From positions 1 through 4,349 of the IMG/VR virus record IMGVR_UViG_2713896773_000007: 4,349 nucleotides of DNA. The stretch is one strand, 5' to 3'. The translations under genes were made by a program, and so were the position numbers. This document shows positions 1 to 4,349 of this stretch, one piece after another (position 1 is the first letter of the stretch; every line of letters begins with the position of its first letter). This DNA is from a virus. Taxonomy: Duplodnaviria; Heunggongvirae; Uroviricota; Caudoviricetes. The notes below the pieces were generated by a model, which worked only from the letters and a program-made list of their open reading frames with translations, was not told the DNA's origin and did no database searches.

Positions 1-26
1 AGCCTCGCATACGCGGGGCTTTTTTA
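1..26 (+). terminator. Putative rho-independent terminator (possibly truncated at the window edge)
   Basis: Stem 1-8 (agcctcgc) pairs with 13-20 (gcggggct), 8 bp with one G-U wobble, loop atac; followed by T-run 20-25. Probably ends the upstream gene (not in window). Confidence 0.45.
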
Positions 27-55
27 TATCTGTAGCCGAGAGGCAGGAGAACGTT

Positions 56-313
56 ATGGAAATGACTGTAGGATTCCCTGAAATGGGTTCGCGATTTGAA
101 TCTGTAAGCTTCGATCCAGATTTAGAAATTAAAATGATAAAGACTGTCAGAACCAAAATTACAGTTTGCAAGCTTGAGCAAATCAATGCGCCTCATGAAC
201 TGGTGTTTATCTATCAGGAGGATTTCAATCCAGGCAGCTCTTTTGCCGAAGTCGAAGCACGCGCCAAAGAATATGCCAGTAAGGCAATTGCCGGATTGAA
301 AACCCCGGCTTAA
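56..313 (+). CDS. Hypothetical small protein, 85 aa, no recognisable family; cargo (moron-like)
   Basis: ORF with strong RBS AGGAGA at 45-50, 5 nt before ATG 56. Clearly more AT-rich than the tail genes (runs such as gatttagaaattaaaatgataaag). No hydrophobic segment long enough for a transmembrane helix. Overlapping minus-strand ORF 122-388 has no comparable RBS. Confidence 0.6.
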   Translation: MEMTVGFPEMGSRFESVSFDPDLEIKMIKTVRTKITVCKLEQINAPHELVFIYQEDFNPGSSFAEVEARAKEYASKAIAGLKTPA

Positions 314-319
314 CCGGGG
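303..319 (-). terminator. Putative terminator for the minus-strand small gene
   Basis: Hairpin ccccgg (303-308) / ccgggg (314-319), loop cttaa. Read on the minus strand it is followed by TTTTC; on the plus strand it is followed by caaagc, so it is polar toward the minus strand. It overlaps the last codons of the + ORF 56-313. Confidence 0.4.
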
Positions 320-326
320 CAAAGCA

Positions 327-557
327 TTATTTGATGCGATGGTAGATGTTATCAGCCCTGGCGTACAATTTGGATACCGCCTCGGCACGACCTTGCTCTT
401 GCATCGTCATTTTTGATGTATCTCCACCGTAGGCCTTCGTCATATACTCAGTAACGCGCTTGCGAAAAGCTCCAGCATCACCTGATTCGACAGTGGCAAC
501 AGCTAATAAAAACGCTAAGGCTTCATCCTGCTGGTCTTCTTTGTTAAAGCTCATCAT
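327..557 (-). CDS. Hypothetical small acidic protein, 76 aa (75 aa if the second ATG is used), unknown function
   Basis: Minus-strand ORF. Reverse complement of 552-564 reads GGAG-TTT-ATG-ATG; the second ATG (554-552) has ideal 6-nt spacing from GGAG. No + strand ORF covers this interval. Translation looks like a compact helical protein. No family recognised. Confidence 0.6.
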   Translation of the reverse strand: MMSFNKEDQQDEALAFLLAVATVESGDAGAFRKRVTEYMTKAYGGDTSKMTMQEQGRAEAVSKLYARADNIYHRIK

Positions 558-685
558 AAACTCCTGTTATACCGAGGCCATCAGCCGCACCGTCGGCAAT
601 TAATGCGCCAGTGCCCACCACTGGCGGGCTGAATCCACAACATAACCAGGTATTTTGATTTGTAACATCCTGATATTCAGACAGT

Positions 686-710
686 AGCCACCTTCGGGTG
701 GCTTTTTTTA
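686..710 (+). terminator. Rho-independent terminator immediately upstream of gene M
   Basis: Stem agccacc (686-692) / ggtggct (697-703) with loop ttcg (UUCG tetraloop), then T7 (703-709) and A. Followed by GGAG 712-715 and ATG 721. Confidence 0.6.
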
Positions 711-720
711 TGGAGCAAAT

Positions 721-1071
721 ATGGCAGTTGAAACATACAGCTGGCGCTCGCAGCTCGGTGCTGGGGCGATTGAATATAGTCAAACGGTGCGCGCTGCGCA
801 GTTCGGTGATGGCTATGAGCAGGTTGCTGATAATGGCATTAACTCTACTGCTATTCAGGTGCCAATGAAGCATACCGGCACCGAAGCGGAGGTGAACAGT
901 ATTCGTGATTTCCTCCTAGCTCATACCGTTAAAGCTTTTATCATCACGCCGCCCGGCGAAGCGAAGGGGCTTTATCGGGTAGTCGCCGATTCCGTTCGTA
1001 AAACGCAGATCAGCAGCAAAGTTGCTGAGTTGACGTTCACCATCAAACGGGCTTACGGAGTGTACGCATAA
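721..1071 (+). CDS. M: Minor tail protein M (lambda gpM-like tail-tip assembly protein)
   Basis: 116-aa ORF. RBS GGAG 5 nt upstream. Contains FGDGYEQ, matching the FGDGY segment I recall in lambda gpM; size similar to lambda gpM (109 aa). Stop TAA overlaps the L start (ATAATG), the same tight coupling as lambda M-L. Confidence 0.8.
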   Translation: MAVETYSWRSQLGAGAIEYSQTVRAAQFGDGYEQVADNGINSTAIQVPMKHTGTEAEVNSIRDFLLAHTVKAFIITPPGEAKGLYRVVADSVRKTQISSKVAELTFTIKRAYGVYA

Positions 1072-1841
1072 TGGCATTAGTCGATCAGGCGGCGATGCTG
1101 GCACCGGGTGGCAGGGTACGCCTGGTTGAAGTTGACGCCTCAGAGTTCAGTGGCGGAATCCACCGATTCCACTACGCACCTTTCCCCCATACGCCGGAAG
1201 AAATTGATGCTGCCAATGGAGATGAAGAAAAGCTTGGACCCAAGCCAATTGTCTTCGGTGGCAATATCTACGATTTTTGGCCGTTTCAGGTTTCAGGCCT
1301 GGAGCTATCAACAGACCAGGCGGCAGAGCCGTCTCTTAGCGTTTCCAACCTCGACGGTCATATCACTGCGCTGTGCCTGCAATTTAAGGACATGGTTAAC
1401 GCAAAAGTGAGCATTATCGACACCTATTCGGTTTACCTCGATGCCGTGAATTACCCTGGTGGGGTGAACCCGACCGCCGACCCGTCGATGTTCACGCTTC
1501 AGACTTTCTGGCTTGACACGAAAACCTCCGAAGACGACGAAGTGGTTTCATGGTCACTCAGTAGCCCCGCTGACTTGCAGGGGCTTGTTATCCCAACCAG
1601 ACAAATCACCTCGCTCTGCGAATGGGCGCTACGCGGGCAGTACCGGAGCGGCGATGGATGCACCTATAACGGTACGGCATATTTCGACGCGAAGGGTAAC
1701 GCGGTGGCTGATCCGCCGCTGGATGCGTGTGGGGGCTGCCTCAGTGATTGCCGTAAACGGTTCGGCGCTGGCCTAGCGGAGCCGAACGCGGCCATCCTCG
1801 ACTACGGTGGATTTCCTGCTACCACTTTACTGAGCAGGTAA
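1071..1841 (+). CDS. L: Minor tail protein L (lambda gpL-like, Fe-S cluster-binding tail-tip protein)
   Basis: 256-aa ORF. Segments LSVSNLDGHITA, YSVYLDAVN and C-terminal C-x22-C-x2-C-x3-C (Cys197, 220, 223, 227; CGGCLSDC) parallel lambda gpL (TLTVSNLYG, YARFLDAVN, CSKCLSGC) as I recall it. GC-rich codon usage typical of the tail module. Confidence 0.88.
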   Translation: MALVDQAAMLAPGGRVRLVEVDASEFSGGIHRFHYAPFPHTPEEIDAANGDEEKLGPKPIVFGGNIYDFWPFQVSGLELSTDQAAEPSLSVSNLDGHITALCLQFKDMVNAKVSIIDTYSVYLDAVNYPGGVNPTADPSMFTLQTFWLDTKTSEDDEVVSWSLSSPADLQGLVIPTRQITSLCEWALRGQYRSGDGCTYNGTAYFDAKGNAVADPPLDACGGCLSDCRKRFGAGLAEPNAAILDYGGFPATTLLSR

Positions 1842-1842
1842 T

Positions 1843-1848
1843 TATAAT
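1843..1848 (+). promoter_or_regulatory. Candidate sigma70 -10 hexamer (perfect TATAAT) for the L-K cargo gene
   Basis: TATAAT at 1843-1848, directly after the L stop and about 93 nt upstream of ATG 1941. No good -35 (best 17-nt-spaced hexamer is taccac) and no TG extension, so strength is uncertain. Confidence 0.3.
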
Positions 1849-1863
1849 CTGTCAGCGCGGCTA

Positions 1864-1875
1864 GACTGGCCAGTC
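1864..1875. repeat. 12-bp perfect palindrome gactggccagtc in the cargo-gene leader, flanked by inverted repeat gcgcggc (1855-1861) / gccgcgc (1901-1907)
   Basis: Read directly from the sequence. Sits between the candidate -10 and the RBS of the 1941-2690 gene. Confidence 0.5.
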
Positions 1876-1940
1876 GAAGAGAGTGAACGTAGACACTCCT
1901 GCCGCGCACCATCATCTACGCAACCTGCTACGAGGTTTAT

Positions 1941-2690
1941 ATGTCACGCATTACTATTTTTCCGGGTGAAAAGTACGGCTATCTTACAATTATTAAAGAA
2001 ACCAAAGCCCCTAGCCATATAAAAACAAAAGGTCTCAGATACTTTTTGTGCTCTTGTGAATGTGGTGTTGTTAAGAGCATTTCCATGGGGTCACTCCGTA
2101 GTGGCGCTGTTGTTTCTTGCGGCTGTTATCATAAGAAAAAAATAACAAAACTGCATAATGGCAAGCCAATCACAGCTTATTCAGGATATTCGTCTTGGAC
2201 ATCTATGCTTGATCGCTGTCGAAATCCTGCTTGCAAGGACTTTCCCCACTATGGCGGGCGGGGTATAACAGTCTGCGATGAATGGAGCAACCCCGTGAAT
2301 TTTGCTCATGACATGGGTGAGAAGCCTAAAGGGTTCTCAATTGAACGCATAGATAACAATAAAGGCTATTCTCCAGACAATTGTCGATGGGCAAATGCTA
2401 CAGAGCAAGGTCGCAACAAGCGCAATAATCATAAAGTTGTCGTGAGCGGAGAGTCGGTAACTATGAGCGCAGCATGGCAAACAAATGGCATGAAAGAGTC
2501 AACTTTTTACAACAGACTAAACGCCGGTATGAATGCCGAAGATGCGTTAGCGAAACCTGTACGAAACCGAATCCCTTACGTAATTTTGAATGGCGAAAAA
2601 ATGCAACTTAAAGAGGCCGCGTTACGGACTGGCATTAGCAAATACATTCTCAGGAAAAAGGTTAGGCCCGACCTCTCCATAACCATCTAG
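1941..2690 (+). CDS. Cargo gene between L and K: Cys-rich HNH/AP2-like putative DNA-binding or homing-endonuclease-related protein, 249 aa
   Basis: RBS GAGG 1932-1935, 5 nt before ATG. Markedly AT-richer than flanking tail genes. N-terminal Cys cluster CSCECG...SCGC (C37, C39, C41, C60, C62). Central W-x3-M-x2-RC...YGGRGI-x-VCDEW and SIERIDNNKGYSPDNCRWA-x-ATEQ resemble a phage protein family usually annotated HNH endonuclease or AP2-domain (recalled, not searched); the canonical HNH His-His is replaced by E-R. C-terminus KEAALRTGISKYILRKK looks like a helix-turn-helix. Own terminator downstream. Confidence 0.75.
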   Translation: MSRITIFPGEKYGYLTIIKETKAPSHIKTKGLRYFLCSCECGVVKSISMGSLRSGAVVSCGCYHKKKITKLHNGKPITAYSGYSSWTSMLDRCRNPACKDFPHYGGRGITVCDEWSNPVNFAHDMGEKPKGFSIERIDNNKGYSPDNCRWANATEQGRNKRNNHKVVVSGESVTMSAAWQTNGMKESTFYNRLNAGMNAEDALAKPVRNRIPYVILNGEKMQLKEAALRTGISKYILRKKVRPDLSITI

Positions 2691-2696
2691 ATAACC

Positions 2697-2721
2697 AAAC
2701 CCGCTTCGGCGGGTTTTTTTA
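2697..2721 (+). terminator. Rho-independent terminator after the cargo gene, upstream of K
   Basis: Stem aaacccgc (2697-2704) / gcgggttt (2709-2716), loop ttcg (UUCG), T7 at 2714-2720, then A. K ATG follows 12 nt after the T-run. Confidence 0.65.
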
Positions 2722-2732
2722 CGGACGTACCA

Positions 2733-3464
2733 ATGAATAAAACCATAATGGCAGCTATCCGGGCGCATGCACTGGAGGAATCCCCGCGTGAGTGCTGTGG
2801 CTTCGTTATTCAGTCTGGCCGTCGCCAGCGCTACATTCCCGTGCCGAATACGCACGAAAATCCGACAGAACATTTTCGCATCGACGGCGAGCACTGGGCT
2901 AACGCCGAAGATATCGGGACGATTATTCGCGTCATCCACTCCCACCCGGGCGACGGTGCCCGGCCTATTCCGTCAGATCTGGACCGCCAGCAGTGCAACA
3001 ACTCCGGCTTGGTATGGGGTATTTACGCTCCGGACAGCGATGAATACGCCGAGATAATGCCGGAGGCGGTGCCGCTTATTGGGCGTCCGTTTATCCTGGG
3101 CTCGAATGACTGCTGGGGGCTGATTATGGACTGGCACGCCATTCAGGGCGTCACGCTGAACGATTTTCGCGTCGATTACCCGTGGTGGGAAAGCCAGTAC
3201 CCGGACAACCTCTATTTTGATAACTGGGAACGGGAAGGATTCGTCGAGTGCGATCCGGCACCAGGCTGCATGGTCATCATGCAGGTTGATTCGGATAAGT
3301 GGAACCATGCGGGCATCATCACTGAAGAAGGCGAACTGCTGCACCATCTTTACGGCCAGCCCTCGTGTGTCACGCCTTATGCCCGTGGCTATTTCAAAGA
3401 CCGCACGATGATCTGCGTTCGTCACAAATACCTGCCGCAGGAGATAAAGCCATGGCGCGTTTAA
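2733..3464 (+). CDS. K: Tail assembly protein K (lambda gpK-like; N-terminal JAMM/MPN domain plus C-terminal NlpC/P60 domain)
   Basis: 243-aa ORF. JAMM-like motif HSHPGDGARPIPSDLD (H69, H71, S81, D82) with upstream Glu residues. NlpC/P60-like Cys127 in GSNDCWGL and His192 in WNHAGII, with H204/H205 as possible third residue. This two-domain architecture is established for lambda gpK. 3-prime end overlaps I by 13 nt. Confidence 0.88.
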   Translation: MNKTIMAAIRAHALEESPRECCGFVIQSGRRQRYIPVPNTHENPTEHFRIDGEHWANAEDIGTIIRVIHSHPGDGARPIPSDLDRQQCNNSGLVWGIYAPDSDEYAEIMPEAVPLIGRPFILGSNDCWGLIMDWHAIQGVTLNDFRVDYPWWESQYPDNLYFDNWEREGFVECDPAPGCMVIMQVDSDKWNHAGIITEEGELLHHLYGQPSCVTPYARGYFKDRTMICVRHKYLPQEIKPWRV

Positions 3465-4045
3465 CCACCATTCGTCTGTATGGCGCACTGGGCGCCCGCT
3501 TCGGGCGTGTGCATAAACTGGCAGTGCAGACATCTGCCGAAGCGGTCAAAGCCCTGTGTATCAACTTCGACGGGCTGGAAGATTATCTGATGAATGCCAA
3601 AAAAAATGGCATGATCTTCGCGGTGTTTCGCGGAAAAAGGAATATCGGCACTCAGGACTTCCAGGAGCTGGCAGGAGACAGTGATATCCGCATTGCGCCG
3701 ATTATGGAAGGTTCGAAAAAAGCCGGAGTATTTCAGACCATCCTGGGCGCTGTGATGGTGGTGGCTGGTATCGCAATTTCTTACTTTAGCTCCGGTACTT
3801 TGGCTACGTTTGGCACAGGCCTTGCGATGTCGGGCGCGTCAATGATGGCAGGCGGCATTTACCAGATGCTATCACCTCAGCCCAAAGGGTTACAGGGGCG
3901 AGACGACCCTGACAATAAACCCTCTTATGCCTTTGGTGGCTCGGTGAATACCCTTGCGATGGGAAGCCCGGTCGCGCTTCTCTATGGCGTCCGTGAGATT
4001 GGCGGCGCCATCATCAGTGCAGGCATAGTCGCTGAAGACATCTGA
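3452..4045 (+). CDS. I: Tail assembly protein I (lambda gpI-like)
   Basis: In-frame ORF opens at 3365, but the real start is taken as ATG 3452 (MARLTTIRLYGALGARFGR...), which has RBS AGGAGA (3439-3444) 7 nt upstream and matches the lambda gpI N-terminus as I recall it (...ICLYGDLQRFGR...). Gly/Ala-rich hydrophobic stretch near the C-terminus, as in gpI. 197 aa. Confidence 0.82.
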   Translation: MARLTTIRLYGALGARFGRVHKLAVQTSAEAVKALCINFDGLEDYLMNAKKNGMIFAVFRGKRNIGTQDFQELAGDSDIRIAPIMEGSKKAGVFQTILGAVMVVAGIAISYFSSGTLATFGTGLAMSGASMMAGGIYQMLSPQPKGLQGRDDPDNKPSYAFGGSVNTLAMGSPVALLYGVREIGGAIISAGIVAEDI

Positions 4046-4065
4046 AAACTCCTTTCTGAATATCA

Positions 4066-4090
4066 AGCACCCAATTGGGTGCTTTTTTTA
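4066..4090 (+). terminator. Hairpin/T7 terminator-like element between I and J
   Basis: Stem agcaccc (4066-4072) / gggtgct (4077-4083), loop aatt, T7 at 4083-4089, then A. Followed by tggatgtaatATG; almost identical in layout and sequence to the element upstream of M. Confidence 0.55.
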
Positions 4091-4100
4091 TGGATGTAAT

Positions 4101-4349
4101 ATGGAAGCGATCACTGGTGCAAAGGGTGGCAGCCAGAAGCAGCACACACCTGTAGAACAGCCCGATTCGGCGCAGTCAATGGCGCGCTGCCGCATGCTGC
4201 TGGCGCTCGGGGAGGGGGAGTTTGCTGGTGGCCTGGATGCGACCCGGATATTCCTGGACGGTACGCCGTTGGGAAACCCCGACGGAACGATGAATTTTGA
4301 AAATGTGTCATGGGATTTCCGGCCTGGCACACAGACCCAGACACCAATA
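4101..4349 (+). CDS. J: Tail tip / host-specificity protein J (lambda gpJ-like), 5-prime fragment; continues beyond the window
   Basis: Open frame from ATG 4101 to the window end (83 codons, no stop). N-terminus MEAITGAKGGSQKQHTP...FRPGTQTQTP parallels lambda gpJ (MGKGSSKGHTPRE...FRAGEQEQTP) as I recall it. The ATG at 4090 is in another frame and hits a stop after about 21 codons. Confidence 0.85.
   Translation, partial: MEAITGAKGGSQKQHTPVEQPDSAQSMARCRMLLALGEGEFAGGLDATRIFLDGTPLGNPDGTMNFENVSWDFRPGTQTQTPI

Follow-up and report, generated by a model that had tools for sequence, protein, structure and literature searches.

The hairpin-T7-A elements that precede the tail genes M, K and J in the window (the whole 4,349-nt stretch of DNA analysed, positions 1 to 4,349 of IMG/VR record IMGVR_UViG_2713896773_000007) are very probably, judging from their sequence, terminators, each closing, on its 3′ side, an accessory cassette or cassette slot between late genes. 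The cassette before M is a gp22/gp23 moron pair and that before K a free-standing HNH gene, and the slot before J is empty. The anatomy of the elements and their conservation among relatives were observed, as were the boundaries of the insertions and the association of hairpin with cargo.

By gene content and alignment, the window was assigned to an E. coli phage or prophage of the lambdoid, HK639-like kind, in which it spans the M-L-K-I-J part of the tail-tip genes. Positions 688-4349 were 89% identical to Escherichia phage HK639 and positions 33-725 were 90% identical to HK97 (megablast). ORF listing and family scans placed tail-tip genes of lambda type on the + strand in the order M-L-K-I-J, M and L overlapping by one base, and left three non-tail stretches (26-710, 1842-2721 and the 55-nt I-J spacer). 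The cassettes had the distinct base composition of morons (44.5-46% GC versus 54.6-59% for the tail genes), and such a low GC would be expected of DNA brought in from elsewhere. The window had a match of any extent in just 14 of 5426 complete E. coli genomes; NZ_LR536430.1 (134849-140427, hit H5) was the sole E. coli chromosome to span the whole of it, at 93.7% identity, and its matching region contained an IS3-like ISSen4 transposase. Features of the window were as follows.

1-25, + strand: fourth element, AGCCTCGC-ATAC-GCGGGGCT followed by T6, hairpin family (a), -13.7 kcal/mol
26-710, + strand: gp22/gp23-type moron cassette, 90% identical to HK97 14452-15145, 46% GC versus 55% in M/L
56-313, + strand: gp22-type ORF, 85 aa
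299-320, - strand: putative gp23 terminator, CCCCGG/CCGGGG stem followed by UUUU; the homologous HK97 site is annotated as a putative terminator
327-557, - strand: gp23-type ORF, 76 aa
686-710, + strand: pre-M hairpin, stem AGCCACC/GGTGGCT at 686-703, loop TTCG, family (c)
711-723, + strand: M RBS and start, GGAG at 712-715, 5-nt spacer, ATG at 721
721-1071, + strand: M (PF05939)
1071-1841, + strand: L (PF05100)
1842-2721, + strand: HNH endonuclease cassette, 880 nt, replacing 1 nt of the native 12-nt L-K spacer, 44.5% GC
1843-1848, + strand: TATAAT, a perfect -10 hexamer
1854-1921, + strand: int-alpA RNA motif (RF02996)
1941-2690, + strand: HNH ORF, 249 aa (phrog_374, HNH endonuclease, E = 2.8e-59)
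2697-2721, + strand: pre-K hairpin, stem AAACCCGC/GCGGGTTT at 2697-2716, loop TTCG, family (b)
2722-2735, + strand: K RBS and start, CGGACGTACCA-ATG, the same as in the insert-free L-K spacer of HK639 and other relatives
2733-3464, + strand: K (JAB and NlpC/P60)
3452-4045, + strand: I (PF06805)
4065-4090, + strand: pre-J hairpin, stem AAGCACCC/GGGTGCTT at 4065-4084, loop AATT
4091-4103, + strand: J RBS and start, TGGATGTAAT-ATG
from 4101, + strand: J, start only

The initial annotation had described three elements with GC-rich stems and tetraloops followed by T7-A-YGGA and an ATG 11-12 nt further on, and their coordinates and sequences were confirmed. Before M, the T-run occupied 703-709, its first T paired with A686, and was followed by A710 and TGGAG (711-715), with the ATG at 721 lying 11 nt past the T-run. 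Before K, the T-run (2714-2720) was followed by A2721 and CGGA (2722-2725), with the ATG at 2733, 12 nt past the T-run; before J, the T-run (4083-4089) was followed by A4090 and TGGA (4091-4094), with the ATG at 4101, 11 nt past it. The regular expression T7-A-Y-GGA-N6-7-ATG matched the window exactly three times, at these three sites, and every one of the three T7 runs in the window belonged to one of them. The fourth element, at 1-25, had been overlooked.

The likeness to intrinsic terminators proposed at the outset held up in stems, U-tracts and orientation. Stems were 7-8 bp with 5-6 G-C pairs and closed by 4-nt loops, the T7 (T6 at 1-25) began within the stem or right where its 3′ arm ends, and all four elements lay on the + strand between ORFs. 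By sequence, the elements are canonical Rho-independent terminators, at which transcription is predicted to stop. Folding of the three regions, a check suggested with the first description, gave stem-only energies of -12.2 to -13.6 kcal/mol and z-scores of -1.9 to -2.5 in 50-nt context. Scanning for a stem of ≥7 pairs, a loop of 3-6 nt and ≥6 T recovered the four elements, every one of them on the + strand; the - strand gave 0, and the chance expectation was 0.0065 per window (mean of 2000 dinucleotide shuffles, both strands together). The pre-K element was skipped by a simpler scanner, in which its stem had run on into the T-run. No Rfam family matched the three hairpins at gathering score; the best overlaps were sub-threshold (Phe_leader, 23.8 of 55 bits; rsmX, 22 of 56; Leu_leader, 19.9 of 50). 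Membership of a known RNA family was rejected, as these leader-type matches reflect terminator-like shape only.

The pre-K junction gave the most direct view of where a cassette ends. In HK639 and 77/81 relatives, L and K are 12 nt apart, separated by the spacer TAA-C-CGGACGTACCA-ATG, and the window cassette is thus extra DNA. At the four occupied loci, the junction reads ...GGGTTTTTTTA-CGGACGTACCA-ATG. Since the insert-free spacer already carries the CGGA and its spacing, these belong to the RBS of K itself, and T7-A is the last part of the insert. The hairpin was present only in the 4/81 loci that also have the 249-aa HNH ORF, and it therefore has no part in tail-gene regulation; on these alignments, the pre-K hairpin is taken as the right end of the HNH cassette. 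The reading of the elements as attenuators setting tail-protein stoichiometry fails at this junction. A search for the motif at the same junctions in relatives had been proposed with the first description; the hairpin was present in 77/78 at M, in 75/76 at J and in 4/81 at K.

From its sequence features, the L-K insert is a complete cassette in itself, similar to a free-standing homing endonuclease gene, with predicted nuclease activity. Its ORF matched a second PHROG family (phrog_3377, E = 2.6e-52) in addition to phrog_374, both placing it among HNH-family nucleases, and had no Pfam or NCBIfam match. The promoter candidate combines the perfect TATAAT at 1843-1848 with a poor -35 (3/6). The int-alpA motif, which starts ~7 nt after the TATAAT and forms the leader of the HNH gene, scored 39.4 bits against a gathering score of 35.8 in E-value mode, over the full-length model with three helices kept; an Rfam gathering-mode run on 1830-1950 gave no match, which was attributed to speed filters. 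The cassette was sporadic (4/81 syntenic loci), with the flanking L sequence altered.

The last ~40 nt of L (window ~1800-1841) were recoded in all HNH carriers (CGACTACGGTGGATTTCCTGCTACCACTTTACTGAGCAGGTAA, against CGATTTTGGTGGCTTCCCGGCAACCGTTCTCTTTATCCGATAA in insert-free loci), and in one locus (L016) the L sequence became carrier-type only in the immediate neighbourhood of the insert. The recoded L 3′ end resembles a tract of co-conversion by homing or of target immunity. An int-alpA-like leader with compensatory stem changes was also seen in L013 (~5334-5400) and L047 (~5328-5395), where it precedes a different, 265-aa HNH-motif ORF at the I-J junction, and the motif seems, on this pattern, tied to free-standing HNH cassettes in these phages. 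Acquisition via an RNA intermediate, in which the right boundary would correspond to the transcript end, was considered and, for the HNH cassette, rejected: any transcript would start downstream of the -10 hexamer, yet the insert carries this hexamer too.

At the M junction, the cassette could be followed between phages. The region homologous to 26-710 lies between I and J in HK97 (14452-15145), where the record labels gp22 a "moron product" and gp23 a "reverse moron product" and annotates a minus-strand terminator and a "putative terminator" ending 11 nt before J. The same cassette with the same AGCCACC-TTCG-GGTGGCT hairpin is thus found before J in HK97 and before M in the window, with the same right junction; the pre-M hairpin is the right end of the gp22/gp23 cassette and the counterpart of the HK97 putative terminator before J. 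In relatives that lack the cassette, hairpin (a) directly adjoins the M RBS. Empty sites read hairpin(a)-T7-AT-GGAGTAAAT-ATG(M) and the occupied site reads hairpin(a)-T6-A[C/T]-[ATCT...gp22...gp23...hairpin(c)-T7-AT]-GGAGCAAAT-ATG(M). Comparison of the two shows that 1-25 is an older terminator (a), the 3′ end of upstream cargo, and that the cassette was inserted between its tail and the M Shine-Dalgarno. The cassette is flanked by a ~10-nt direct repeat, GGC-T6/7-A, made of the two terminator tails, and the M RBS was constant among 78 relatives regardless of the hairpin upstream.

A moron is defined as an inserted unit that brings a promoter and a terminator of its own and is usually expressed independently (PMC3594210, PMC2629481). 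At H-M, the cargo is extra DNA relative to HK97, in which these genes are 2 nt apart. As for a terminator of its own, a hairpin with T-run was found at the M junction in 77/78 relatives, ending exactly 11 nt from the ATG in 74; hairpins were counted per sequence, as the MAFFT alignment was out of structural register across families. Six stem cores were seen (CTCGC/GCGGG, CCCGC/GCGGG, CCACC/GGTGG, CTCGC/GCGAG, CCAGC/GCTGG and CCGCC/GGCGG), and from this comparison the architecture of the junction is judged to be kept while its sequence is replaced. When relatives were clustered by the 300 nt upstream, each of the 32 cargo clusters had exactly one of the six hairpin families ((a) in 9, (b) in 12 and (c) in 4), so that family followed cargo in 32/32 clusters, and clusters of M alleles mixed families; the hairpin therefore belongs to, and travels with, the cargo. 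For a promoter, consensus and relaxed scans gave no candidate for gp22 and a weak one for gp23 (best score 8/12), so the strict promoter-gene-terminator definition applies only in part to this cassette.

The H-M interval as a whole is a hypervariable accessory slot. The gap ranged from 51 to 2237 nt and held at least 32 unrelated cargo clusters (loci L001-L082; window 1-720 is its right end), including a lipoprotein and a YafO-family toxin in HK639. Four loci (L067, L069, L071 and L079) had no cargo and an H-M distance of 51-80 nt, with a hairpin still flush against M. The M-L junction is able to take insertions too, as L049 (M 1532-1876, L from 3218) and L052 (M 2412-2759, L from 3368) have ~0.6-1.3 kb extra between M and L.

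Two existing annotations were touched by the alignments. The HK639 RefSeq M CDS (HK639_19, L001 2977-3384, record 16608-17015) starts at 16608 and contains the annotated terminator at 16631-16655. When it is aligned with the window and 78 relatives, the start falls instead at 16665, downstream of both the terminator and the GGAG, and the annotated start is probably wrong. In HK97, gp22 is annotated as 363 nt (L002 5024-5386), overlapping the reverse gene gp23, and the homologue in the window (85 aa) ends at 313, short of the minus-strand terminator. In both phages, the shorter version of gp22 may be the right one.

The pre-J element sits in a 55-nt I-J spacer that has no cargo gene in the window and is gene-free in most relatives. 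Its stem, loop, T-run and RBS are the same as those of the terminator annotated at 19137-19160 in HK639, and the element was conserved in 75/76 relatives. Variability was 0 bits in the 3′ arm, T-run and ATGGA, 0.25 in the 5′ arm, 0.70 in the loop and 0.95 in the upstream spacer. Within the J family, 90.9% of cells were paired, with no two-sided changes and a covariation score no better than shuffles; covariation was dropped as proof of this hairpin, and with no compensatory double substitutions the structural case within the J family rests on conservation and a few C-to-U wobble changes. The slot can be occupied: L013 and L047 have the second, 265-aa HNH-type cassette just upstream of the resident hairpin, and in L040 and L064 it is filled by other cargo with other hairpins. 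A pure "end of cassette" role does not fully explain the conserved cargo-free terminators before J and, in four loci, before M.

The initial annotation took the common layout as evidence for one reused unit with conserved sequence and spacing. A single 38-nt unit was rejected: what the K copy has in common with the M and J copies is confined to generic features of terminators, and its CGGA...ATG belongs to K itself. The layout is instead a composite, a by-product of a generic T-run-A-T tail, the downstream gene's own Shine-Dalgarno and start, and cassettes that lie flush against them. The tail is not particular to these junctions. The exact 23-mer of hairpin (b) plus T7 occurred in >120 viral contigs, where 115 distinct contexts lay upstream of it and 108 downstream; among 104 non-redundant contexts, the bases after the T-run were A in 80%, T in 75% and G in 70%. 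For 87 other strong terminators at the same loci, +1 was A in 64% and +2 was T in 72%, whereas 783 T-runs without a hairpin were followed by flat composition. In HK639, AT follows the T-run in 8/11 late-path terminators, even with the next start codon 80-110 nt away. As the A-T bias is seen at terminators and not at hairpin-less T-runs, T7-A(T) is a property of terminators, not of junctions.

The GGA(G) 5-7 nt from each ATG is the Shine-Dalgarno of the downstream gene, as shown directly for K. Regular spacing would arise if the only cassettes to persist are those that fit exactly between the stop codon of one gene and the RBS of the next; the 12-nt L-K spacer offers essentially one insertion position that spares both. 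Terminator stems in these phages are also heavily skewed to a few CCCGC/GCGGG-type sequences. The near-identity of the M and J versions noted earlier was upheld (19/22 positions identical, or 21/24 with the preceding GC included), and this extra similarity may reflect a shared RBS constraint or be a trace of cassette transfer between J- and M-type junctions. The idea that the elements are scars of repeated module exchange came close: each is the 3′ end of an inserted cassette or cassette slot. Among the viral contigs with AACCCGCTTCGGCGGGTTTTTTT (L083-L202), an ATG followed the hairpin (b) T-run in 56/104 contexts. Strong terminators here were also followed by a non-random A-T-G/T and then a C/G-rich stretch, with CC(Y)G after a G at +3.

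Terminators inside a late operon had been called unexpected if the operon is one antiterminated transcript, and the reverse holds. Lambda Q makes RNA polymerase terminator-resistant by blocking hairpin formation (PMC9388147), and such processive antitermination lets terminators be tolerated. HK639, the nearest characterised relative, carries a gene for a Q-like antiterminator, and its depositors marked 11 terminators along the stretch that leads from Q past the lysis, head and tail genes; such sites within the operon are thus to be expected. A search of the available literature found no paper describing the HK639 terminators. We infer that polymerase lacking the late-antiterminator modification, coming from cassette promoters or from stray promoters in the lysogen, would stop at the hairpins and be kept out of the tail gene that follows. 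Polymerase modified by Q would read through in the lytic phase, and the late operon would stay a single transcript despite the insertions.

Other readings of the elements were weighed against this one. Chance resemblance among unrelated hairpins has the small size of the elements in its favour and nothing else; with four elements, all on the coding strand, set against the 0.0065 expected per shuffled window, and with conservation at the same junctions in 75-77 relatives, it was rejected as practically impossible. Highly unlikely, too, is partial attenuation during lytic growth to set tail-protein amounts (e.g., less J or M than upstream genes). The pre-J and pre-M terminators are fixed in the clade even without cargo, with invariant stems and T-runs and variable loop and spacer, and HK639 terminators flank the major tail protein gene on both sides. 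Yet the pre-K element comes only with the HNH cassette, the M hairpin segregates with cargo and not with M allele, and processive Q-type antitermination would suppress hairpin formation (PMC9388147). In HK97, moreover, H-M is contiguous (2 nt) and M/L/K overlap or are 1 nt apart, with no terminators there, so the tail-tip genes do not require such control. A post-transcriptional role, in which the hairpin would be a 3′ stability barrier after processing and the U7-A 5′ of the Shine-Dalgarno an S1-binding translation enhancer that makes up for lost translational coupling with the upstream gene, is about as improbable as attenuation. U-rich tracts 5′ of the Shine-Dalgarno enhance translation via S1, and the U-run ends 1-2 nt before the Shine-Dalgarno in 74/77 M and 74/75 J junctions, the T-run and ATGGA being invariant in the I-J element. 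The Shine-Dalgarno is unpaired in the centroid structures at all three junctions (the MFE structures at M and J pair 1-2 of its bases weakly with the upstream flank). However, the same T-run-A-T tail is found on terminators 80-110 nt from any start codon, and insert-free K genes are translated without such a tract; the evidence from K argues against both attenuation and a U-tract enhancer as a general explanation.

Compatible with termination, and possible although we consider it rather unlikely, is a role as recombination linkers or landing pads, with GGC-T6-7-AT-GGA microhomology serving cassette gain, loss and movement; the conserved cargo-free H-M and I-J terminators may then be standing landing pads that define the hypervariable slots. 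The gp22/gp23 cassette with hairpin (c) at two junctions (J in HK97, M here) with a shared right junction, and the direct repeat that brackets it, are consistent with this, as are the spread of six hairpin families over 32 unrelated cargo clusters and the occurrence of hairpin (b) at three junctions (H-M, L-K and I-J) and, in HK639, downstream of the YafO gene. The second HNH cassette type also landed just upstream of the resident I-J hairpin, and hairpins are conserved at cargo-free junctions. No such homology, however, was found at the left junctions of the cassettes, and with the hairpin (b) 23-mer in >120 contigs and stems so skewed, sharing could reflect convergence on a few strong terminator sequences, which is an adequate alternative to a linker role.

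As terminators at cassette ends, the elements are a textbook feature of lambdoid phage genomes, and no new biology is needed for them. Elements of this kind are already known, the pre-M and pre-J elements being annotated as terminators in the HK97/HK639 records. The use of the analysis lies mainly in annotation, as the native RBS is told apart from the cassette end and exact cassette boundaries are given. If the landing-pad role were true, it would offer a sequence-level mechanism for the shuffling of morons and defence-type cargo among prophages, and would help to predict accessory-gene hotspots.

Several known systems can be set beside the window. Free-standing homing endonuclease gene cassettes include the seg and mob genes of T-even phages. 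Like these, the L-K insert, known here from sequence, is HNH-family, sporadic (4/81) and intergenic between conserved genes, is linked to a ~40-nt recoded stretch of L and has its own -10 element and terminator. It differs in its leader, an int-alpA RNA motif, which to our knowledge has not been described for homing endonuclease genes. The terminators of morons, by the accounts in PMC3594210 and PMC4104026, are a concept that goes back to the paper on the HK97 and HK022 genomes (Juhala et al., 2000, J Mol Biol 299:27). As in the window, HK97/HK022 morons are lower-GC extra DNA between late genes that are adjacent in relatives, with a factor-independent terminator directly before the next gene, and in HK97 both I and J show the layout T6-7-A-TGG(A/G)-N-ATG, with 11 nt between T-run and start. 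The gp22/gp23 cassette is at I-J in HK97 and at H-M here, and in contrast to the moron definition it has no convincing promoter for gp22 and a weak one for gp23. HK639 (NC_016158.1 / HM208537.1) shares the identical pre-J terminator, a terminator flush against M and a Q-like antiterminator; its pre-M stem (CCCGCC-TTAT-GGCGGG) and its cargo (lipoprotein and YafO toxin) are different, and it has no L-K insert and hence no pre-K terminator. The "ant moron" slot of P22-like late operons (PMC2629481) is alike in that one junction takes many gene sets, as H-M does here with at least 32 cargo clusters, but it belongs to another phage type and another junction, and in the window three junctions are used, not one.
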